Sequence record: PP047753 | From: Escherichia phage KEP3 | Direction: 5' to 3' (one strand) | Length of the DNA stretch: 64,000 bases | Shown here: positions 8,975-24,039 of the stretch, one piece after another | Layout of the letters: every line of letters starts with the position of its first letter | Numbering within the stretch: position 1 is the first letter of the stretch | The notes under the pieces: generated by a model | Database searches by the model: none | What the model was told of the DNA's origin: nothing | The model's input: only the letters and a program-made list of their open reading frames with translations | Translations under genes and position numbers: made by a program

Positions 8975-9032
8975 TGCTTTTTATAATTTTTTGCAGTAAT
9001 GTATGAGGTTAATGATTTTAGAGGGAGTAAAA

Positions 9033-11732
9033 ATGGAAAACGTAGATTTTAAAAACTTACATTTAGTTGGTGATACAGAAACTGATGGTTTACTCCTTGA
9101 GTTCACTAAAGTGCACGTAATGGCTTTCGCAGACTATAAATCTGACGATGAAGAGCCACCTGTATGGGTCTTTACAGATGAGCCTATCCTCGGTCACAAA
9201 TACACCAAGTACATCAAGGGTGGTTTGCGTGAAGGTATTGAGTTTGCGTTAAAGGCAAAACGACTTTGCATCCATAATGGTCTGGGTTATGACTGGTGGG
9301 TTTTCAATCACATTGCACCTGATTTATGGAACTTTGATAATCCAAAGTGTAAGCCGTGGAGTAATTTCTTTCAGGATTCTCTTATCCAGTCTCGTGTTCA
9401 GTGGATGGATAGACCAACTCCAAAAGGCTATAAAGGTGCTCATGGCTTGGCTGCATGGGGTGCTCGTGTTGGTGTCCGTAAACCAGAGATTGAACATTGG
9501 GGTGTGTGGAATGCAGAAATCTTCACTCGTGTTGTGGAAGATATCCGTATTAACGCCAAAACTAAACGCGCACTGGATAATGAGTATCTCAAGCTAAAGA
9601 AGTGTGGCATAGACACTTATGAAACCTATATGCGAGCTAAAGAAACATCTTTCTGGATGAGTCAACAAGCTATCAATGGTTGGAAAGCTGATAAAGAACT
9701 TATGGAGTTCCATGTAAAGGAACTTGACAAGTTGACTAATGAGCTTGCTTCAGAAGTTGAACCACATCTTCCTCCAACTATTAAGACCAAAGGTAAAGTT
9801 ACTGGGGAAGAGTTTGCAAAAGCTTGGAATGAGTATGTTGAAACATTCGGTCATGCAGATGGACTGAAGAGAATTACCAAGTACCCTAAGACAAAGTATC
9901 GTCAGCAGGTACGTAACGGTGAGATGCAGACATATGAAATCAAGCCATTTGGTAAGCCAACTACAAAGATTTTTAACATTGAAAAGAGAAATTGCTATAC
10001 ACCAACCAACTCTGTAACTGGTGAAGAGTACAAGGAAGGTTTTGTAGCAATGAAGGATGCTCGTGCAATTTGCAACGAGTTGAATGCAAAGATTGGTAAG
10101 AAATGCAAAGACTGGAAGCCAGTAAAAACAGTTAAGACTGTGAAGTACTATAACAGTCATGTTGTTAACCACTTTGAACTTGAGTCAAGTCGCTACACAG
10201 GATTGATTGATGCACCATATACACCAATTGAGTTTGAAGTTTCTCGTATGACTCAGGTAGCAGTTGTTAAAGACTACTTGAAATCAGTTGGTTGGATTCC
10301 AGATGACTGGAACTACAAGAAAGATTCAGACGGTCGCCCTGTCAAAGTTTGTCGTTTCAAAGACAACAAAAAGATGATTACAAAGCATCCTAAGTGGCAG
10401 GAGATGGTTGAACGGTGTGGGTTGAGTTATGTTGAACACGAAGGTGTCCAGTACATCGAACATAACTGGTCTGTGAAGAAGTACACGGATTTGCTTGAAC
10501 CTTGCTTAATCCGTACTTCACCAAAACTTACTGAATCTTCTTATGATACGATTGAAGGTGAGCTTGGACAGAAGATTGCTAAATACTATACTTTGATGCA
10601 CCGACGCAGAACCATTGAGAACTCAAAGGATGATGAAAAAGGTTGGCTAAACCAGATTCGTCCAGATGGTCGCCTTAGTGCTGGTGCAATGGTATTTGGT
10701 ACTTCAACTGGACGTATGACACAATATGGTATTGTAAACGTACCGTCTGGTGCTGCTGTCTATGGGGAACCAATGAGGGCAGTATGGATTTGTGAAGAAG
10801 GTACTAACGTTGTCTCTGTAGACATGAACTCAGCCCAGCTAGTTCTTCTTTGTAACTTTATGGGTGACAAAGACTTCACCAAAGCGGTAACGCAAGGTAA
10901 AGAAGAGATTGAGTTTATTCGTCAAGAAGATGGACGCTATTACTGCAAACACTTTGATGAGTACCTCAACCCAGAGATTGATAAGTACCTCCGCTATGAC
11001 TCTGAGAATGACCTGTACGTTGTCTATTCAGGGACTGATGCACACACACTGAACAGTATTTACTTTAGCTTGAATGATGAGCAGGATATCTTGACTTGTC
11101 GAGCCACTCAGGATGAGAATCTTCTCCATGAGATTAGTAAGGGTCGTAAAAAAGCTAAGAATGGTATCTATGCACTGCTGTTCGGTGCAGGTGATGAGAA
11201 GTTTGCTAAGACAATTAAAGCTGCAACTACTCAGGAAGGTGCACTGACCAAACAGACTTACTTTATTCGTTTGCCTAAAATTAAGAAGCTGCTGGATGAC
11301 TTGGAAGCTGACTACAAAGCGACTAAAAAGGCACTTGAAGAGGTGTTTGGTAAGACCGCTGCAATCTCTAAAGGGGGATTTGTAAAGGTTGCTGGAGCTT
11401 GGTTGTGGTGTAAATCTCCACACAAACTGTTGAACTATCTTTTGATGGGTTCAGAGGCTCAGATTCAAAATGAGGCAATCAACCTTGCTTGTCGTCGTAT
11501 GATTGACGAAGGTTTGATGAAGTTAAATGGTCGTCAACCAGCTATTGGTGCTCGTTTACTCTGTGCATATCACGATGAAACAAGCTGGGAATGTCCAGAA
11601 AGTATGACGGCAGAAGTGAAAGCAGTTACTGACTGGTATTATGGACAAGCTTCTAAGAACTTAGGTCTTAAGAAAGAAACACTTGTAACAGGTACTGGTA
11701 AGGTTGGTAAAAGCTGGCTTGAAGTACACTAA
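9033..11732 (+). CDS. DNA polymerase, family A, with 3'-5' exonuclease domain
   Basis: Exo motif LVGDTETDG; pol motifs SVDMNSAQL, KNGIYALLFGAG, YHDE; start moved to ATG 9033 with GAGGGAG RBS. Confidence 0.85.
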   Translation: MENVDFKNLHLVGDTETDGLLLEFTKVHVMAFADYKSDDEEPPVWVFTDEPILGHKYTKYIKGGLREGIEFALKAKRLCIHNGLGYDWWVFNHIAPDLWNFDNPKCKPWSNFFQDSLIQSRVQWMDRPTPKGYKGAHGLAAWGARVGVRKPEIEHWGVWNAEIFTRVVEDIRINAKTKRALDNEYLKLKKCGIDTYETYMRAKETSFWMSQQAINGWKADKELMEFHVKELDKLTNELASEVEPHLPPTIKTKGKVTGEEFAKAWNEYVETFGHADGLKRITKYPKTKYRQQVRNGEMQTYEIKPFGKPTTKIFNIEKRNCYTPTNSVTGEEYKEGFVAMKDARAICNELNAKIGKKCKDWKPVKTVKTVKYYNSHVVNHFELESSRYTGLIDAPYTPIEFEVSRMTQVAVVKDYLKSVGWIPDDWNYKKDSDGRPVKVCRFKDNKKMITKHPKWQEMVERCGLSYVEHEGVQYIEHNWSVKKYTDLLEPCLIRTSPKLTESSYDTIEGELGQKIAKYYTLMHRRRTIENSKDDEKGWLNQIRPDGRLSAGAMVFGTSTGRMTQYGIVNVPSGAAVYGEPMRAVWICEEGTNVVSVDMNSAQLVLLCNFMGDKDFTKAVTQGKEEIEFIRQEDGRYYCKHFDEYLNPEIDKYLRYDSENDLYVVYSGTDAHTLNSIYFSLNDEQDILTCRATQDENLLHEISKGRKKAKNGIYALLFGAGDEKFAKTIKAATTQEGALTKQTYFIRLPKIKKLLDDLEADYKATKKALEEVFGKTAAISKGGFVKVAGAWLWCKSPHKLLNYLLMGSEAQIQNEAINLACRRMIDEGLMKLNGRQPAIGARLLCAYHDETSWECPESMTAEVKAVTDWYYGQASKNLGLKKETLVTGTGKVGKSWLEVH

Positions 11733-11738
11733 TTAGTA

Positions 11739-11773
11739 TTGACAAGGTACTCATGGAAGAGTACCTTATACAA
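11739..11773 (+). promoter_or_regulatory. TTGACA box followed by perfect 7-bp inverted repeat (GGTACTC/GAGTACC) and TATACA
   Basis: Seen directly; could be promoter/operator or terminator for polymerase gene. Confidence 0.3.
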
Positions 11774-11793
11774 TATCTTATATAGGAGGGCTT

Positions 11794-12003
11794 ATGAGCC
11801 ACCGTGGAAGAACCCATGCAGCAATGATGAAAGGTGCTTCAAAGGAAACTATCAAGAATCGTAAGCAGAAGTTGTTTGAGAGAATAAACAGGTTGATTGA
11901 CAATTCATCTCTTTCAGGTTCTGAGAAGGTTTTCTTGAAAGGTAATCTGAAAAGCATTGCACAAGAACTTGTAGATATTGAATATTGGAGACATCAAAAA
12001 TGA
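11794..12003 (+). CDS. hypothetical protein
   Basis: ORF track; TAGGAGGG RBS. Confidence 0.5.
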   Translation: MSHRGRTHAAMMKGASKETIKNRKQKLFERINRLIDNSSLSGSEKVFLKGNLKSIAQELVDIEYWRHQK

Positions 12004-12218
12004 CACTTGCAGACGTTATTCAGCAACTTCATGATAACTGCTACACTCCAGAGTTAATTCAGGAGATGTCCATTGTAGTCATGCCTAGCAAGTTCGTAAA
12101 AACCTTTAACAACGACGCTTTAAGGTCTACACACATCCTTATCGTTGACGGTAAGATTGCAAAAGACCGTACTGGAGTACTTAAAGGTGAACGTATTGAT
12201 ATTCTGGAGTTGCTATGA
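12000..12218 (+). CDS. hypothetical protein
   Basis: ATG at 12000 with GGAGA RBS and ATGA overlap. Confidence 0.45.
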   Translation: MTLADVIQQLHDNCYTPELIQEMSIVVMPSKFVKTFNNDALRSTHILIVDGKIAKDRTGVLKGERIDILELL

Positions 12219-12360
12219 AGAAAATGTACAGTCTCTGGGGAAGGGTTGGTAAAGGTTTTGACTGGACGCTTCTTCGTTCAAACGTTAAACGTAGTGAATT
12301 ACCAGAACTCATCACTCACTATTTAAAAACATACAGAGAGGTAGACTATCGTGAACAATA
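12215..12360 (+). CDS. small protein (48 aa)
   Basis: ATGA overlap with upstream stop, GGAG RBS; below ORF-track cutoff. Confidence 0.3.
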
Positions 12361-12608
12361 AGGTTAAGAGTTGTGTGAAAGTAATGGTTGCACTTGGAGT
12401 AATTTTTCTATCTGGCTGCAACCCCTCTTATGAAGATAAAAATGCTTCCTACAGCCTCCCACCAGAGATGCAAGATTGCACAGTCTATGAGTTATATGGT
12501 GATACTGTAAGCAGAGATATTGTTGTTGTCAGATGTCCAAACTCTCAAACAACAACATCTTATATCTATGGCAAAAATGGTCAATCACATACCACGGTTA
12601 TTGAGTGA
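12351..12608 (+). CDS. putative lipoprotein
   Basis: Hydrophobic signal sequence ending in lipobox LSGC. Confidence 0.5.
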   Translation: MNNKVKSCVKVMVALGVIFLSGCNPSYEDKNASYSLPPEMQDCTVYELYGDTVSRDIVVVRCPNSQTTTSYIYGKNGQSHTTVIE

Positions 12609-12618
12609 GGTTTTTACG

Positions 12619-12825
12619 ATGGAAGTATTAGTAAACTATATCTATCGTTATGATGTTGTTCACTCCACTACAACTGTAGCTCAACGCAATCCAATAGTCC
12701 CACGAGAAGGTGAGCTTGTTCGCATTGAGGGTTGGACTTACACTGTGGAAAGCATCATCCATAAGTTTGATGTTGCTGGCGATGTTCAAGTTATTGACGT
12801 AGAAATTGGTGGTAAGAGAAAATGA
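12619..12825 (+). CDS. hypothetical protein
   Basis: ATG 12619 with GAGG RBS; ORF-track upstream start overlaps previous gene. Confidence 0.4.
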   Translation: MEVLVNYIYRYDVVHSTTTVAQRNPIVPREGELVRIEGWTYTVESIIHKFDVAGDVQVIDVEIGGKRK

Positions 12826-13040
12826 CTGTAGAAGATAAATTTAAGAACGCAGTTCTTACAGAAGAGGGTGAGCTTGAAACATTCATTCTTCGTGTTGATG
12901 GTAAGCTATTCCGGTGTCGTTGTGGGTCAAACTGTTTCCATAAACCAGATAAAAATGACTTAGAGCTTTACGCATGTAATGCTTGTTACACTTGGTATCA
13001 CTCAGAGGTTAAAAATGACAATTCTGTACAAACAAAATAA
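12822..13040 (+). CDS. small Cys-rich zinc-ribbon protein
   Basis: CRCGSNC...CNAC cysteine pairs. Confidence 0.45.
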   Translation: MTVEDKFKNAVLTEEGELETFILRVDGKLFRCRCGSNCFHKPDKNDLELYACNACYTWYHSEVKNDNSVQTK

Positions 13041-14115
13041 AGACGGCTCTTTTAACGTCTGGTCATGCGTTGCTGTAGGTGACAAAGTTATTACAACCTA
13101 CGGTAAAGAAAATGGCAAGATGATGTTTGAAGAGTATACAGCAGAACCTAAAAACATCGGTAAAAAGAATGAGCGTAACGCTGAACAGCAAGCTCTTTTT
13201 GAAGTTGCTGCAAAGTATAAAAAGCAGGTTGACCGCAAAGGTTATGCTTACACAAAAGAGTCTGCACAGAATACTGAAAAGGTGGGTGTACAGCTTGCTC
13301 ATGATGCTGCAAAGGTTAGCCATGCAAAGTATTTGATATTCCCTGCTGATGCTCAACCAAAACTTGATGGTGTTCGTTGTAGAATTTCAAGAGATGCTGA
13401 TTTAGTTAGCTTCACGGCTTATTCTCGTGAGAATACTGTTTACAACGTCCCAGAAGAACTAATCCCAGATTTGCTTTTGTTGCTTAAATTGCATCCACAA
13501 GTCGAAGACTTTGATGGTGAGATTTATGCTCATGGTTGGGACTTAGAAGATATTGTGTCTATGATTAAGAATGCTGACAATCCAGACCGACATCTACTCC
13601 AGTTCTACTGGTACGATATCTGTGACAGCACTAAGACGTGGCCTGAGCGTAGAGATATTATTGAGACTTCACCATTGAATGACTTTAGAGACGGCTGTAA
13701 AGTTGTTCCTGTTAAGTCTCGTCGTGTAAATTCTTGGGAAGAGTTTGATGAAGCTCATGATAAGTGGGTTGAAGCTAAGTTTGAAGGTGCAATGTACCGT
13801 TCAATCTCTGAAGACTCCTTCTATGAGTGTTGTCACCGTTCATACTTCTTGATTAAGCACAAGAAGATGCACACTGAAGAGTTTAAAGTGACTGGTGTAA
13901 AGACTGATAAGCGTGGTCATGGCAAGTTCGTTGTAGAGACTCTTCCTAACGTCTTTGTAGATGTCTCATGGAAGACTACTCATGAGAAGAAACAGTATCT
14001 TGCTGAACATCCTGAAGAGTTTATCGGCAAACCTTTGACGGTTCAGTTCCAGAAGATGACTCGTAAAGGTTCTTTACAGTTCCCTGTTGGGTTAGTTATT
14101 CGAGACTACGAATAA
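13015..14115 (+). CDS. ATP-dependent DNA ligase
   Basis: Adenylation motif KLDGVR; size ~366 aa like T7-type ligases; start set to ATG 13015. Confidence 0.7.
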   Translation: MTILYKQNKDGSFNVWSCVAVGDKVITTYGKENGKMMFEEYTAEPKNIGKKNERNAEQQALFEVAAKYKKQVDRKGYAYTKESAQNTEKVGVQLAHDAAKVSHAKYLIFPADAQPKLDGVRCRISRDADLVSFTAYSRENTVYNVPEELIPDLLLLLKLHPQVEDFDGEIYAHGWDLEDIVSMIKNADNPDRHLLQFYWYDICDSTKTWPERRDIIETSPLNDFRDGCKVVPVKSRRVNSWEEFDEAHDKWVEAKFEGAMYRSISEDSFYECCHRSYFLIKHKKMHTEEFKVTGVKTDKRGHGKFVVETLPNVFVDVSWKTTHEKKQYLAEHPEEFIGKPLTVQFQKMTRKGSLQFPVGLVIRDYE

Positions 14116-17881: not shown

Positions 17882-18142
17882 ATGAAAATTGAACACTGCT
17901 ATGAGTCTGATGGAACACCTATCCGATGTCCACATTGTGGATGTACAGACTTGCAAGGTGAGGTAAGTGAAATAGTCAACGGTCATATCGCTGAAGAGAG
18001 TACAAGGTGTACAGGGTGTAATGAAATCATTGCTTTCTGGGCTTATGGTTCATACCAACCTGCACCACACTTAATCTACCATAGCAATAAAGCTGTGAAG
18101 AATGTTATCAACTGGTTCATTAAGAAAGGATTTACAAAATGA
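17882..18142 (+). CDS. small zinc-ribbon protein
   Basis: CPHCGC...CTGCNE cysteine pairs. Confidence 0.45.
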   Translation: MKIEHCYESDGTPIRCPHCGCTDLQGEVSEIVNGHIAEESTRCTGCNEIIAFWAYGSYQPAPHLIYHSNKAVKNVINWFIKKGFTK

Positions 18143-18684
18143 TTAAATTAATCTTTGCAAGTGGTGAAAACGGTGAATTTGGTACACCGACTGGTATGCC
18201 GTGGCCTCGACATAAACAGGACATGCAAGAGTTTAAGAGACTCACTAAAAATAACTTAGTAGTCATGGGTAATGAGACTTTTAAGACTCTGGGTAGTAAA
18301 CCTTTACCAGAACGTGCAAACCTCATCTTAACAAATTCTGTACCATACTTAGGCATAGACTTTGGCAAAGATGATGTAATGTATGCTAAAGCCAGTAAAG
18401 AGTCATTTGGAGCATTTTTGAAGTATCTTGATAGCTCTATTGATGAAGATGTCTTTGTAATTGGTGGTGCAGGTATCCTTGTCAATGCTTTACCGTATGC
18501 TAGTGTGGTGTTCCATACTGTTTTCCATAAAGTTACTGAAGAGGCCACTGTGCATTTACCTTTTGAAAACTTCTTTGAGAAGCTGTATGATAACCGTGTG
18601 TTTACAAAGGTACAGTCAAAACCATCAGAGGATGGTAAAGCAACTTTTGAAATTTATGTTCCACAAGTAAAAGGACACTTTTGA
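18139..18684 (+). CDS. frd: dihydrofolate reductase
   Basis: N-terminal IKLIFASGENGEFGTPTGMPWP...VVMGNETF matches DHFR signature. Confidence 0.85.
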   Translation: MIKLIFASGENGEFGTPTGMPWPRHKQDMQEFKRLTKNNLVVMGNETFKTLGSKPLPERANLILTNSVPYLGIDFGKDDVMYAKASKESFGAFLKYLDSSIDEDVFVIGGAGILVNALPYASVVFHTVFHKVTEEATVHLPFENFFEKLYDNRVFTKVQSKPSEDGKATFEIYVPQVKGHF

Positions 18685-18685
18685 T

Positions 18686-19585
18686 ATGTCACAAGCAGAT
18701 ACAAGTTACAAAAATATCCTGAACCATGTTTTATCCGTTGGTGAACTGCGTACTACACGAACTGGAGATGTTATCTCTGCTTTTGCTCCACCTCAGTTTC
18801 GTTTTGATATGAGGACTGGTTTCCCGCTCTTAACATCTAAACAGGTGTTTACACGGCAAGTTATTGGGGAAGCTTTATGGTTCCTGAATGGTGAGAATAA
18901 GCTTGGTGAACTTCGTTACCGTACTTGGGATGAAAATGACGGAGAACGCTGGACTATCTGGTCAGATGATTTTAAACGTTGGTTAAGCTCTAATTATTCT
19001 TCTGAACAAGACTGGTTAGATGACGCAGGTGGGAGAATCTACGGGGTTCAGTGGAGAAACTTTGAAGGTCATAATGGTTGTGTTGTAGACCAGTTAGAGA
19101 CCTTAGTAACGAAGATGAAGGGTGATATTACAGACCGCTACATGCTTGTTAATGCTTGGAATGCAGCAGATATTGCATCCAACTCGATGGCTTTAGCACC
19201 TTGTCATGTTCTGTTTCAGATTTATATCACTAATGAGGGTGAAGTTGACTTACAGTGGTATCAACGTTCAGTAGACACCTTTTTAGGACTTCCGTTTAAT
19301 ATTGCATCTTACGGTTTTATTCTGGAAGTTCTTTGTAAGATGACTGGATACACTCCACGGTACTTGATAGGTGTCTTTGGGGATACCCAGATTTATCAGA
19401 ACCATATGAAGCAGGTTTATGAACTGATGAACAATGAAGAGTTCCATGCACCTACTTTTGAGATTGGTGTACCACTTAACACACTAAGTGACCTAAAACA
19501 CCTTACTGCAAGTGATTTTATTGGTGGCATTTACAACTACCAACATGCAGGAAAGATTGAAGCACCTTTGTCAGTAGGTAAGTAG
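18686..19585 (+). CDS. thyA: thymidylate synthase
   Basis: NAWNAAD...MALAPCHVLFQIY...YQRSVDTFLGLPFNIASYG catalytic region. Confidence 0.8.
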   Translation: MSQADTSYKNILNHVLSVGELRTTRTGDVISAFAPPQFRFDMRTGFPLLTSKQVFTRQVIGEALWFLNGENKLGELRYRTWDENDGERWTIWSDDFKRWLSSNYSSEQDWLDDAGGRIYGVQWRNFEGHNGCVVDQLETLVTKMKGDITDRYMLVNAWNAADIASNSMALAPCHVLFQIYITNEGEVDLQWYQRSVDTFLGLPFNIASYGFILEVLCKMTGYTPRYLIGVFGDTQIYQNHMKQVYELMNNEEFHAPTFEIGVPLNTLSDLKHLTASDFIGGIYNYQHAGKIEAPLSVGK

Positions 19586-20267: not shown

Positions 20268-22817
20268 TTAAGCAGTTCTTACCCAAGCCATTAACTTATA
20301 GAACTGGTTAGTAACACTAAATGCTAAACCAGAACCAGTACCACCTGTGTTACCACTAACTGTGTGGCTGTGAGCACCAATACCAACAGTGTGGCTGTGG
20401 TTACCTGTTGTATTCGTTACACCAGACCAGTTTCTTGATGCGTTGAAGTTGACAGGGATACCATTAGTAAAGTTGTTACCAGTATACCCTTTAGAACCTG
20501 CCTGACTACCGAGGTAGAATGCACCACTTGCTGTGTAGAAGCTACTAGCGTCACTTCTGAAGTAACCAAATGAACCAGTAATCTCCATAGTACCTCTGTT
20601 GTGGTTGTGGTTACCAGTTGTGCTAGAAGTCTTAGTACCATAGTCAAATGATGAAGTAGTAGCAGAGAAGCTGTGCGTGTGTGAAGGTAAGTTACCAACA
20701 GACAGCGTTACAGAGTCTGAACCACCAGTTGTAGCAACATCTGAACCGTTTGCTGCTGCAATTCTAATAGTTCTACCAACACCATTATTCAGGTACGTCC
20801 AAGTTAACCCAGGAAGTGCTGTGTTTGGGTTGACATTACTGTTAAACCACGTCACAATACCTACTGGATAGATTTTATTCAGGTCTGTAGAGTCACTAAT
20901 TGCTTCTGCAATCTTCTGGTCAGTTTCTGCTTTAGTGTATGCACCAATATCTGAAGGGGTTGGTTTTTGCAAACTTGTGTAGTATTTTGCAATTGTACCC
21001 TTCACAATACCTTGTGGAGCATCATCAAATGTCTGTGGGACTTCAAACAACTGTACACTTGCATTACTAGAAGACTGAACCCTTGTCGTTGTGCTGTTTT
21101 GATACGTACCAGCAAGATAGTAAATATCATAGGTGTCTCCAGAAGTATTCACATAACCAATATCCCTGACAATGGTGTTCTCTGATGTTCTCCAAGCAAC
21201 AACATTTAAGCCCTTTGGATTGTTATTTGAAGTTCGCAGAACAATTTCACATTTACCTGCTTGGTTTGGTGTATTAATATTAAAACCTGACCCACCAAAT
21301 ACCTCAATAACAGCAGTGGATGCTGATTGTGGCATCACAACAGTGGCAATTTTAGCCCACTTATCAGTGTTTCCCACATTGAAGCTAGTGCTTCTGATTC
21401 TTAGGTATCTACTATCACTAGCACTTTGCGTAAAGTATCTAGCATCTAAGTTAGAGAAATCTGAAGGTTGAACTTGTCCAGCAATAGTCAATGTTTTGTT
21501 AATGTATGATGTTGTATTCCCGAGAACCAATTGGGTTCCAGAATAACTGTTATTTAGGGTAACATCATGCGTATCAGCACCACCAACACCAATCCACCAT
21601 CTTGATACATTAGTAGTGTCCACACCACGAATATATAATGGTCTATTCTGAGTAGAGTTTTTAACAATCAGACCTTCATTATCCGTAACAACTGTCTGTA
21701 CACCATTAAAAGTATTCCTTGCATTAGTTCTTGCAATTGTACTTAATGTTGCTGCCGGAATATATCTAGAGTCAATGTTAGCCCAATCTGAAGGTTGAAC
21801 TTGTCCAGTGATTCTGACATTTTTATTTGCTGATACTCCAGCAGCATCTAAGACCAAAGAGGTGTTAGTGGTATAGTTGTAGATAGTTACACCAGCACCT
21901 GAACTACCTTTACCAAGATACCATAAGTTTCCACCTTCATAATCTTTTGCAAGTAGATACAGGGATTCGTTTGCTGATGCACATTGCAGTGTGATAGCAG
22001 CAGCATTTGAGATAACACTCATAGTCCTAAATGTGTTAGCACCTGTAAAGGTGTTATTACCAGCTAACTGTGCAAATCTCTGATTAGCAACTGTCTGAGT
22101 GAAGTATCTAGCATCTAAGTTAGAGAAATCTGAAGGTTGAACTTGACCAGTGATTGCTAAAGACTTATTAACAGAGATATTGCTTGCAATAGTCAAAGCT
22201 GAGTTGTATTTGTTATTGTACAGTTTTACTTCATCAGAGCCATTACTACCAATACCAACCCACCATCTAGCTGAACCATCTAAGTTCACACCCTCAATAT
22301 ATTGCGCATTATTTGCATTCTGGTTTCTAAGACGAAGTAAGTTAGCATCACCTTGAATGTTCTGAGTTCCAGAGAATGTGTTTGTGACAGCAAGCCTTGC
22401 ATATCTTGCATCATTCTCTTCATTAGTTCTCATCCCAAGCTCATTAGGGCTTGGTTTATTCAAAGTGTGATAAACAGTTGCCGACCTTGAAGCATCTGCA
22501 ATAGTGAGTTTAAGACCATTTGCATTAATTTTAAAAGTCTTTAAAACATCCCCAATAGTAACCTCAGAAGAGCCTGTTGGGTCAAATACTGCCTTACCAC
22601 CGTAAAGTAACTTGACAATACCTAAATCCCCAACCATAGTACTCCCAGCAATCTGAACAAACCTTTCTAGTTTGAAGGAAGCTAAGAAGTCTTGATAGGT
22701 CATTCTACGGTCTTCGTCACCCAACATTTCAGGTCTTTTCTTAACTCTGATGTGCAATAGGTCTTCTGAACGAATTGTGTCGATTGAGTTTAACTGACTC
22801 AATTTGTAATCTGCCAT
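20268..22817 (-). CDS. tail fiber protein (long)
   Basis: Three internal repeats GQVQPSD(F/W)(S/A)N(L/I)D(A/S)RY; His-rich HxH C-terminal region. Confidence 0.65.
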   Translation of the reverse strand: MADYKLSQLNSIDTIRSEDLLHIRVKKRPEMLGDEDRRMTYQDFLASFKLERFVQIAGSTMVGDLGIVKLLYGGKAVFDPTGSSEVTIGDVLKTFKINANGLKLTIADASRSATVYHTLNKPSPNELGMRTNEENDARYARLAVTNTFSGTQNIQGDANLLRLRNQNANNAQYIEGVNLDGSARWWVGIGSNGSDEVKLYNNKYNSALTIASNISVNKSLAITGQVQPSDFSNLDARYFTQTVANQRFAQLAGNNTFTGANTFRTMSVISNAAAITLQCASANESLYLLAKDYEGGNLWYLGKGSSGAGVTIYNYTTNTSLVLDAAGVSANKNVRITGQVQPSDWANIDSRYIPAATLSTIARTNARNTFNGVQTVVTDNEGLIVKNSTQNRPLYIRGVDTTNVSRWWIGVGGADTHDVTLNNSYSGTQLVLGNTTSYINKTLTIAGQVQPSDFSNLDARYFTQSASDSRYLRIRSTSFNVGNTDKWAKIATVVMPQSASTAVIEVFGGSGFNINTPNQAGKCEIVLRTSNNNPKGLNVVAWRTSENTIVRDIGYVNTSGDTYDIYYLAGTYQNSTTTRVQSSSNASVQLFEVPQTFDDAPQGIVKGTIAKYYTSLQKPTPSDIGAYTKAETDQKIAEAISDSTDLNKIYPVGIVTWFNSNVNPNTALPGLTWTYLNNGVGRTIRIAAANGSDVATTGGSDSVTLSVGNLPSHTHSFSATTSSFDYGTKTSSTTGNHNHNRGTMEITGSFGYFRSDASSFYTASGAFYLGSQAGSKGYTGNNFTNGIPVNFNASRNWSGVTNTTGNHSHTVGIGAHSHTVSGNTGGTGSGLAFSVTNQFYKLMAWVRTA

Positions 22818-22863
22818 TATGAATTTTCCTCTTAAAAGGGGCTATAAAGCCCCTGTAAAGAAA

Positions 22864-24039
22864 TTAAGCTGTTCTCTGCCACACATACACTACAAAAGAT
22901 GGCTGCTCAACACTGAAAGCTTGACCACCACCAACAGAACCAGATGTCCCTGAGTGTGTATGCTCAGAGCTAGAAACAGTAACAGTGCCTGTATGACTGT
23001 GCGAACCAATATTAACAGTGTGGCTGTGAGCACCAATTGCGACAGTATGGCTATGAGCACCAGATGATGCAGTTGTACCTGAGAAGCTATGGGTGTGAGC
23101 ACCAGCTAAATCAGTATACATAGCATTACCAACACCAGCATCAGCAGATGCAGTAATAGCGTTTGTGCCACCCCTATCATTACCCCTCATAGGGACTCTA
23201 TGGTTGTGGTTACCAGCATTACTTGTTGTGCCACTAAACGTGTGAGTGTGAGAACCAGCACTATTAGTCGTTTTTGTACCGTAATCAAAAGTTGATGTAC
23301 TTTTTGAACCATAATCAAAACTAGAGATAGATACACTTGCAGAGTGTGTATGACCACCACCTGTTAGATAGATAGAGTGAGTATGCGCTGGTAAATTATT
23401 ATTTGTTAATGCTACAGTCTGAGAACCAAACGTTGAACCAACAGGTCTAGAATATGTATCATAACCAACTAGTGCTCTACCTTTAGAAACTAACTCCCAA
23501 GTACCTCCACAAAGCAAGTAAGTGGATGGGTTATCAGAGTTAACAGATAGATGAATAGTACCCACTGGATATGATGCTTGGATAGCTTTGTATAAATTAT
23601 TAACTGCTTTCGCGGTAGCATATTTATCAGCATCTTCATTGTACAGATTGGATGTTGTCCAGTTCTGAACATTACTTAAACCAACCTGTGCTTTCGTTGT
23701 GTTATGTGGGTTACTTTTGTCGTCAATATGTTGCTGAATTAAGTTATTCACTTCCTCTGACGACATAATTTGTAGATTTGCTCTTGCCTCAGCAACATTT
23801 ACAATATCTGACAAGTTATTAGCTGCAACTAATTGAAGAGAGTTAATAACATTATCAAGACCTACTTGCGATTTAGTTACACCATGAGGGTTATTCCTCA
23901 AAGATGCGTGAGGTGCTAACAACTGCTCAAGCGTACATCTTTTATCCTCAACACCTTGCTTAAGATGGAAGATATCACTTAAATCAACTGGTAAGGCCGC
24001 TTGTGGCAAGGCACTAATTTGAATTTCACCTACTGCCAT
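22864..24039 (-). CDS. tail fiber protein (short), paralogous C-terminus
   Basis: Duplicated N-terminal NPH(G/N)(V/T)TK(S/A)QVGL(D/S)NV motif; HTHS/HSHT repeats; C-terminal end similar to 20268-22817. Confidence 0.6.
   Translation of the reverse strand: MAVGEIQISALPQAALPVDLSDIFHLKQGVEDKRCTLEQLLAPHASLRNNPHGVTKSQVGLDNVINSLQLVAANNLSDIVNVAEARANLQIMSSEEVNNLIQQHIDDKSNPHNTTKAQVGLSNVQNWTTSNLYNEDADKYATAKAVNNLYKAIQASYPVGTIHLSVNSDNPSTYLLCGGTWELVSKGRALVGYDTYSRPVGSTFGSQTVALTNNNLPAHTHSIYLTGGGHTHSASVSISSFDYGSKSTSTFDYGTKTTNSAGSHTHTFSGTTSNAGNHNHRVPMRGNDRGGTNAITASADAGVGNAMYTDLAGAHTHSFSGTTASSGAHSHTVAIGAHSHTVNIGSHSHTGTVTVSSSEHTHSGTSGSVGGGQAFSVEQPSFVVYVWQRTA

Follow-up and report, generated by a model that had tools for sequence, protein, structure and literature searches.

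A DUF4884-family lipoprotein gene in Escherichia phage KEP3 and its possible role at the envelope of the infected cell

A stretch of 64,000 nucleotides (nt) from Escherichia phage KEP3 (sequence record PP047753), referred to here as the window, carries a small gene at 12351-12608 on its plus strand whose product is predicted to be a lipoprotein. We found that this gene is one more copy of a catalogued and uncharacterised family, known as DUF4884 in Pfam and as PHROG 902. In view of its location, its topology and its distribution among phages, we tentatively propose that the product plays a periplasmic accessory role directed at the envelope, possibly an exclusion of further phages that does not depend on their receptor.

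The lipoprotein and its family

The features of the gene, all on the plus strand, are as follows (aa, amino acids).
12351..12608 (+): coding sequence of the lipoprotein precursor, GTG start, 85 aa, stop codon TGA at 12606-12608; PHROG 902 / Pfam DUF4884 member
12375..12377 (+): alternative in-frame GTG start, giving a 77-aa precursor, MKVMVALGVIFLSGC...
12335..12341 (+): Shine-Dalgarno-like AGAGAGG, 9 nt upstream of GTG 12351, read from the sequence
12351..12416 (+): signal peptide, residues 1-22, with a Lys-containing n-region, the hydrophobic core VMVALGVIF and the lipobox residues L-S-G before Cys23
12417..12419 (+): Cys23 codon; predicted site of lipid attachment and of cleavage by signal peptidase II, invariant in the family
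12417..12605 (+): mature domain, 63 aa, with five predicted beta strands and the conserved motifs LPxE(L/M)xDC and VVRCPNSxT

The product of the translated open reading frame (ORF) reads MNNKVKSCVKVMVALGVIFLSGC, followed by NPSYEDK.... The initial annotation had described it as a small lipoprotein of 85 aa with a signal peptide and an LSGC lipobox, and this description was borne out: the n-region contains Lys4, Lys6 and Lys10 and is followed by an uncharged hydrophobic stretch and then by L-S-G-C. The precursor thus combines a basic n-region, an uncharged hydrophobic core and a lipobox of the form [LVI][ASTVI][GAS]C with a cysteine at residue 23, inside the range of about 15-35 residues from the start that was applied; it also agrees with the PROSITE PS51257-type rule, with which it was compared by eye. 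A scan of all six frames and every alternative start by regular expression and hydrophobicity, which required a basic residue and a hydrophobic core in addition to a lipobox, returned no other ORF from the 64-kb window than this one. Either start, 12351 or 12375, would yield a valid lipoprotein precursor. The 77-aa form corresponds to the 78-aa 'MWK...' form that is annotated in most relatives, GTG 12375 lying one codon past the ATG position of that form, and the AGAGAGG upstream of GTG 12351 sits within the end of an upstream 48-aa ORF (12215-12361) that shares 11 nt with the lipoprotein ORF. Cys23 is followed by Asn (+2) and Pro (+3), and by the +2 rule of E. coli the Asn predicts sorting of the window protein to the outer membrane.

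The window protein matched PHROG 902 ('unknown function', E=2e-16, residues 3-83) and no other PHROG family. PF16225 (DUF4884) was precomputed for nearly all relatives from two homologue searches of a large protein collection, the four relatives that lacked it being two truncated or frameshifted sequences and two weak matches; it was attached to relatives at 62-85% identity, and it was not marked as weak or faint in the family genes at the four loci looked up. In a local Pfam hmmscan, PF16225 was not among the matches of the window protein itself, whose DUF4884 label is taken from the precomputed matches of its relatives, and Pfam and NCBIfam scans of the lipoprotein and of five small neighbours gave no meaningful matches. 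Homologues were detected by tblastn in 541 phage records, and a profile search of 1.84 billion cluster representatives (clusters at 50% identity) retrieved 1,340 clusters at E<=0.001, of which 816 also passed E<=1e-10, with lengths of 71-154 aa among the 150 clusters listed. A recognisable lipobox was present in all but a handful of about 255 relatives inspected, and Pfam LPAM_1 was matched by 33 of 116 members. Three cysteines (C23, C43 and C62 in the window protein) were the only residues without variation when 116 and 150 sequences were aligned, and P37, V60, P63 and K75 were conserved in at least 90% of the aligned sequences; the motifs LPxELxDC and VVRCPNSxT(S/T)T surround the invariant cysteines. 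The window protein shares this architecture (about 75-110 aa, a lipobox, two further cysteines and a VVRCPNSxT-type motif) and is a direct member of DUF4884 / PHROG 902 with no structural difference. Many members (P0033, P0035, P0085, P0122, P0124, P0133, P0163, P0195 and others) bear C-terminal extensions, made of repeated 'V(V/I)IDGVxY' units or of an 'ALNKLTxEExKALGL' tail, that are absent from the Felixounavirus protein. Membership in DUF4884 explains nothing mechanistically. In every source checked, the family was called only 'hypothetical protein' or 'Lipoprotein', and a search of the literature for a function of DUF4884, of Felix01p170 or of any homologue found nothing, DUF4884 occurring in table entries only.

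The residue at +2 varied across about 116 members (D 25, E 19, S 17, N 15, T 14, G 11). Asp at +2 is an inner-membrane retention signal in E. coli. Because the Asp +2 members come largely from phages of Enterobacterales, including enterobacterial jumbo phages and Vequintavirinae, the function of the family apparently needs no outer membrane, and the anchor membrane apparently varies among its members.

The AlphaFold2 (AF2) models reached a predicted local distance difference test score (pLDDT) of 67.6 for the full precursor and of 72.0 for the mature domain alone, which contained five beta strands. C43 and C62 (21 and 40 in mature numbering) lie at the two ends of a hairpin formed by strand 22-27 and strand 35-39, and a Cys43-Cys62 disulfide that staples this hairpin is plausible from the model. 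A Foldseek search of the two models against PDB gave no match at E<=0.001, and against a viral library it returned family members only, such as a protein of a Yersinia jumbo phage (TM 0.75) and the 'Lipoprotein' of Aeromonas Aeh1. Profile matches of the full-length protein in PDB (FlgP, BamD, TrwH and Llp) were rejected, as they covered only the signal peptides of unrelated lipoproteins, and a match of the mature part to the P2Y12 tail was rejected as chance.

Pairwise comparison with seven Ounavirinae genomes gave the lipoprotein gene a ratio of nonsynonymous to synonymous substitution rates (dN/dS) of 0.11-0.39, and values of 0.02-0.15 were obtained for the DNA polymerase gene, the ligase gene and most neighbouring small ORFs. 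The lipoprotein gene is genuine and selected, and it is under purifying selection that is more relaxed than that on its neighbours.

Genomic setting and distribution

The region 11000-14000 matched 260 phage records, with 92-95% nt identity in the top matches, and Felix O1-like phages that infect Escherichia, Salmonella, Shigella and Citrobacter made up almost all of these records. Because the best matches are Felix O1-like phages, the window is judged to be part of a Felixounavirus genome. The lipoprotein ORF is the counterpart of Alf5 ORF091c, 'similar to Felix01p170', and belongs to a run of co-directional, tightly packed genes with overlapping starts and stops, whose surroundings are listed below.
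9003-11732 (same direction as the lipoprotein gene): DNA polymerase gene
11794-12361 (same direction): three small ORFs
12619-13040 (same direction): two small ORFs
ending at 14115 (same direction): DNA ligase gene
18139-19585 (same direction): dihydrofolate reductase (DHFR) and thymidylate synthase genes
20268-24039 (convergent to the run): tail-fibre genes
20268-22817 (-): nearest tail-fibre gene, PHROG 4277

The initial annotation had placed the gene in the early region. This placement held insofar as the gene is co-directional with the genes for DNA polymerase, ligase, DHFR and thymidylate synthase, but a scan for promoters and terminators was uninformative on timing, with site counts at chance level and no strong promoter directly upstream of the lipoprotein gene. 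The position between the polymerase and ligase genes is kept in Felixounavirus, Mooglevirus (Sf13) and Suspvirus (mistaenkt), and the small ORFs that flank the gene are exchanged or missing.

With one copy per genome, the family was present in Ounavirinae, in Vequintavirinae (4MG, Certrevirus, CR3), in the jumbo phages Asteriusvirus and Eneladusvirus, in T4-like phages of Aeromonas, Acinetobacter and Pseudomonas, in one N4-like Vibrio phage and in 114-kb Vibrio phages, as well as in Acinetobacter Obolenskvirus and the ICP1-like JSF10. The same motif was thus found in phages of Enterobacterales, Vibrio, Acinetobacter, Aeromonas and Pseudomonas, which use different receptors. A scan for VVRCPNSxT[ST] gave 38 loci in IMG/VR versus one in 185,579 bacterial and archaeal genomes (one genome per species, and the exact motif only, so that members with a variant motif are missed); members that carry the motif, the core of the family, thus occur essentially only in phage genomes and are for the most part missing from prophages. 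Nearly all members whose surroundings were available lay on contigs of phages or of phage-like character. The sole bacterial locus with the motif was in Hylemonella gracilis ATCC 19624 (NZ_AEGR01000062; L009 5956-6234), and the ORFs flanking it had no informative PHROG matches; it may belong to a prophage, to another mobile element or to a contaminating phage contig. In addition, Pfam DUF4884 labels one Bacteroides protein.

A conserved partner was sought by all-against-all clustering of the neighbours at 24 distant loci, among which only the lipoprotein itself was common. The Pfam families among 147 neighbouring ORFs included RNA ligase, DnaB, RdgC, Dam methylase, deoxynucleoside monophosphate (dNMP) kinase and a clamp-loader subunit, together with late-transcription coactivator, sigma-70 region 4, NADAR, homing endonuclease and one Imm_superinfect; the 25 most frequent of the 44 neighbour families comprised neither lysis families (endolysin, holin, spanin) nor tail families. 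Individual loci adjoined an origin-binding protein and a helicase, polynucleotide kinase (PNK), NrdC.11, rIIB and dam, or lay within the N4-like early region. The family is therefore a stand-alone accessory gene that lies in replication or early-type regions at the loci examined.

Further genes were noted at individual loci. R2K-type ATP-grasp and ADP-ribosyl-glycohydrolase genes lie near the DUF4884 gene on two large environmental phage contigs that are related to each other (L016 5791-7456; L064 3396-4259 and 7736-8473), and on one of them a SIR2-domain gene is directly downstream of it; R2K, ADP-ribosyl-glycohydrolase and SIR2 genes are typical accessory genes of host takeover or counter-defence. 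In Acinetobacter phage vB_Aba_QH4, a T4 Imm-like gene (Imm_superinfect, E=8e-14; L022 3612-3821) follows about 410 nt downstream of the DUF4884 gene, and it was the only link to known exclusion among the 147 neighbouring ORFs. In Escherichia jumbo phage A4, gene A4_191 (L004 2620-2892), two genes downstream of the DUF4884 gene, encodes an unrelated Cys-rich small lipoprotein, MIKKLLTVFVVFCTMFLTAC..., which had no Pfam match; several periplasmic lipoproteins may be clustered together in jumbo phages.

Candidate roles of the lipoprotein

In the role that we propose, the precursor would be exported by Sec, Cys23 would be lipidated by Lgt, the signal peptide would be removed by signal peptidase II, and the product would be N-acylated by Lnt and then delivered by Lol to the outer membrane, on its periplasmic side, the last step because the +2 residue of the protein is Asn; these steps are taken from established lipoprotein biogenesis. 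The beta-rich domain of 62 residues would then be displayed in the periplasm, probably stapled by the Cys43-Cys62 disulfide. Because the motif is kept across many host genera with different receptors, and because the anchor membrane apparently varies, the surface centred on RCPNSxT would most likely bind some conserved component of the Gram-negative periplasm or envelope rather than a phage-specific receptor at the cell surface. In this way, the lipoprotein would condition or protect the envelope of the infected cell during infection, and the most attractive version of such a role is a receptor-independent block of superinfection or of lysis from without, similar to the action of T4 Spackle (Sp) and Imm. 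These two small proteins of a virulent phage, encoded among its early genes, are located in the envelope, and their action does not depend on the receptor; Sp is soluble in the periplasm and Imm is an integral membrane protein, and neither is a lipoprotein. The resemblance to them is functional only, with no homology, and the co-location of an Imm gene with a DUF4884 gene is a single case, one of the 147 neighbouring ORFs.

Several points weigh against this proposal. No homology ties the family to any function, and exclusion or protection is inferred solely from where the gene lies, from the topology of its product and from its distribution. The +2 rule, which was established for Enterobacterales, may not hold in Vibrio or Acinetobacter hosts, and the disulfide was deduced from the invariant cysteines and the order of the strands, not from coordinates. 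The moderate pLDDT (72) also makes the absence of fold matches weak evidence. Finally, the faster amino-acid change relative to the neighbouring genes could equally fit an arms race with a host factor, that is, counter-defence.

It is accordingly possible, if doubtful, that the lipoprotein is instead a periplasmic factor of counter-defence or host takeover, which would inhibit a conserved enzyme or sensor of the host envelope and so keep the infected cell productive. Conceivable targets, which we name with the same reserve, are a protease, a peptidoglycan hydrolase, an envelope-stress sensor, an envelope-located component of abortive infection, or the release of outer-membrane vesicles. A polar motif that is invariant across host genera and an apparent independence of the anchor membrane are consistent with such a factor, as are the stand-alone genes of accessory or early regions, found beside ADP-ribosyl glycohydrolase, SIR2, R2K ATP-grasp and NADAR genes and a dN/dS above that of the neighbouring genes, which is common for genes in conflict with the host. 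However, neither known inhibitor families nor the PADLOC models gave a match for the lipoprotein. Host takeover is nearly as likely as exclusion, and sequence data alone cannot separate the two.

The receptor blocker Llp of phage T5 had been put forward in the initial annotation as the model for this gene. In this mode of action, a lipoprotein of the Llp/Cor type, held in the inner leaflet of the outer membrane, would bind the phage's own receptor from the periplasm and disable it for further phages. T5 Llp indeed shares the format, being a small lipoprotein, made by a virulent phage, that counts about 62 residues in its mature part and contains a pair of cysteines there (PMC9586334); it is a periplasmic outer-membrane lipoprotein with a Cys11-Cys58 disulfide that jams the plug of FhuA (PMC9586334). 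Cor has the same fold as Llp and is always found behind the tail-fibre cluster of phages that use FhuA or BtuB (PMC13164509). The likeness of the window protein to Llp and to the Cor proteins of T1, phi80, N15 and HK022 thus lies in a mature part of about 60 residues, an internal Cys pair and a predicted anchor in the outer membrane facing the periplasm, and Llp is likewise made during lytic infection. Both the Asn at +2, which predicts outer-membrane sorting in Ounavirinae, and the amino-acid change that is faster than in the neighbouring genes would also fit a receptor blocker.

The mature domains, in contrast, showed no homology. Alignment of the family profile with Llp by hhalign, with the signal peptides removed, gave a probability of 1.9%; a value of 76.6% against full-length Llp was rejected, as the alignment consisted of the signal peptide and about nine residues. 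Llp belongs to PHROG 1119 ('Cor superinfection exclusion protein') and the window protein to PHROG 902. The profile search of PDB listed 8a60_B at E=9.7 with no passing stretch, and Foldseek of the two AF2 models (pLDDT 68-72) against PDB, including Llp 8a60, returned no Llp among the 50 matches listed for each. In mature numbering, the cysteines are at 21 and 40 in the window protein versus 11 and 58 in Llp. The genomic position differs as well: the lipoprotein gene is separated from the tail-fibre genes by 7.7 kb and at least 12 genes, among them those for ligase, DHFR and thymidylate synthase, whereas llp and cor abut receptor-binding genes, T5 llp (precursor of 77 aa) starting 80 nt from the receptor-binding gene oad. 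Moreover, the receptor of Llp/Cor phages is a TonB-dependent transporter, whereas Felix O1-type phages target lipopolysaccharide (LPS) and not protein receptors (PMC8594841). With LPS as the receptor, as the literature on this phage type has it, a blocker in the periplasm would have no plug of an outer-membrane protein to jam. Members of the family occur in phages whose receptors are unrelated, and the candidate binding motif of the family is invariant across phages of at least five host genera, the opposite of what is expected of a receptor-specific blocker; its sorting signals are variable, and many members from enterobacterial phages have Asp at +2. Taken together, these comparisons leave the T5 Llp reading not supported, and we consider it improbable that the window protein acts as a receptor blocker of this type. 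A further point against it would be the 'DUF4884' gene reported, by label only, alongside cor and a spanin gene in the T1-like phage Henu8 (PMC12210894); the related phage pSf-1 had no detectable DUF4884 homologue.

Less probable still is a role as Rz1-like o-spanin or other lysis component, which would act together with a partner in the inner membrane, fusing or disrupting the outer membrane late in infection. The likeness to Rz1-type o-spanins is that of a small phage lipoprotein with a predicted outer-membrane anchor. In addition, the homologue of Vibrio phage PhiImVa-1 is annotated as 'putative spanin', and in phage 4MG the gene upstream of the family member is annotated as 'Rz-like spanin' and matches PHROG 6073; these occasional annotations of homologues or neighbours look like guesses from the lipobox. 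Alf5, however, has a separate, overlapped pair of Rz/Rz1 type adjoining rIIB (L007 5406-5916), with the endolysin at 18953-19417. Its ORF006 has an N-terminal transmembrane domain (TMD), a coiled-coil-like region and a match to PHROG 1152 ('Rz-like spanin', E=1e-41), and its ORF007, a 'hypothetical protein' in RefSeq, begins within the 3' end of ORF006 with MKKLSQSFIMFVLLITMSGC and has the lipobox ITMSGC. This pair was checked in relatives at about 92% nt identity, the corresponding region lying outside the window. Unlike an Rz1 gene, the window gene has no adjacent or enclosing i-spanin gene and lies outside a lysis cassette: its upstream 48-aa and 77-aa ORFs encode no TMD, the upstream gene likewise lacked one at about 17 of 23 distant loci, and an enclosing ORF, itself TMD-less, was found by the scan of flanking ORFs at one locus only. 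No neighbour family was common to the loci, and neither endolysin nor holin was among the 25 most frequent neighbour Pfam families. Asn at +2 predicts outer-membrane sorting of the window protein, but 25 of about 116 members have Asp at +2 and, by the rule from E. coli, would be retained in the inner membrane, a location that an o-spanin cannot have. Rz1 is Pro-rich and extended, whereas the domain described here is conserved and predicted to be a folded, Cys-stapled beta domain. Because of the separate Rz/Rz1 pair, the few adjacent i-spanin candidates and the Asp +2 members, an o-spanin role appears unlikely.

A chance ORF or a decaying remnant without function, as might be suspected from the missing annotation in finno, momo and PspYZU05 and from two frameshifted metagenomic relatives (P0011, P0012), has next to no probability in the face of 1,340 clusters with invariant cysteines and a conserved motif, a dN/dS well below 1 and a position kept across three genera.

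Neighbouring small genes and meaning of the family

The small genes around the lipoprotein gene differ among relatives. A gene for an HNH homing endonuclease follows directly after the DNA polymerase gene in Alf5, Sf13, mistaenkt and momo (L008 16218-16769, L013 336-863, L014 368-880 and L015 459-962; window equivalent 11732-11794) and is absent from this window and from finno, UAB_Phi87 and VpaE1_ev035, which we read as a presence/absence polymorphism of a mobile endonuclease. One of the flanking small ORFs, orf77 (window region 11985-12218), showed only 38-42% identity in Sf13 and mistaenkt; another, orf72 (region 12822-13040), showed 69-74% identity in Alf5 and VpaE1_ev035, with dS above 1; and orf48 and orf72 were absent from Sf13 and mistaenkt. 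The polymerase and ligase were 89-100% identical in the same genomes in which the flanking small ORFs diverged. The mosaic pattern of the small ORFs that flank the lipoprotein gene suggests allele replacement by recombination.

The 72-aa product of 12822-13040 (+) has paired cysteines (CRCGSNC ... CNAC) with the look of a zinc ribbon; its ORF overlaps the longest ligase ORF (from 12979) and is labelled 'DNA ligase' (VOG1487) in finno and momo. The true ligase start is probably downstream of 12979, because relatives annotate 366 aa. In finno and momo, the lipoprotein gene is unannotated, and an N-terminally over-extended downstream gene covers its 3' half (L010 1524-1826 and L015 1770-2072; window equivalent 12520-12825 (+), with a TTG start at 12520). 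The true start of this downstream gene is probably ATG 12619, because PHROG 4427 matches residues 1-68 of 68. Annotation of the lipoprotein homologue is likewise missing in Pseudomonas phage PspYZU05 (NC_055720).

The reach of the family, with about 1,340 clusters and an invariant motif in many unrelated large virulent phages of Gram-negative hosts, is a reason for interest more than the single copy in the window, and these phages include some used in therapy and biocontrol (Felix O1-like, rV5-like and jumbo). Given that so many lytic phages place this protein in the periplasm, it probably has a general effect on the envelope. A more speculative and rather unlikely extension is that DUF4884 represents an unrecognised, widespread class of receptor-independent envelope guards, in which the RCPNSxT loop of a small disulfide-stapled lipoprotein would bind a conserved part of the Gram-negative envelope and so stop superinfecting phages from delivering their genome or penetrating the cell wall, or shield the infected cell against lysis from without; if true, an envelope-guard mechanism would be common to Ounavirinae, Vequintavirinae, jumbo, T4-like, N4-like and marine Vibrio phages. 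The target of the lipoprotein could reveal a new mechanism of exclusion or takeover together with a conserved, vulnerable component of the envelope, and if the lipoprotein is an exclusion factor, it would affect co-infection by the members of a cocktail and hence the design of phage cocktails.

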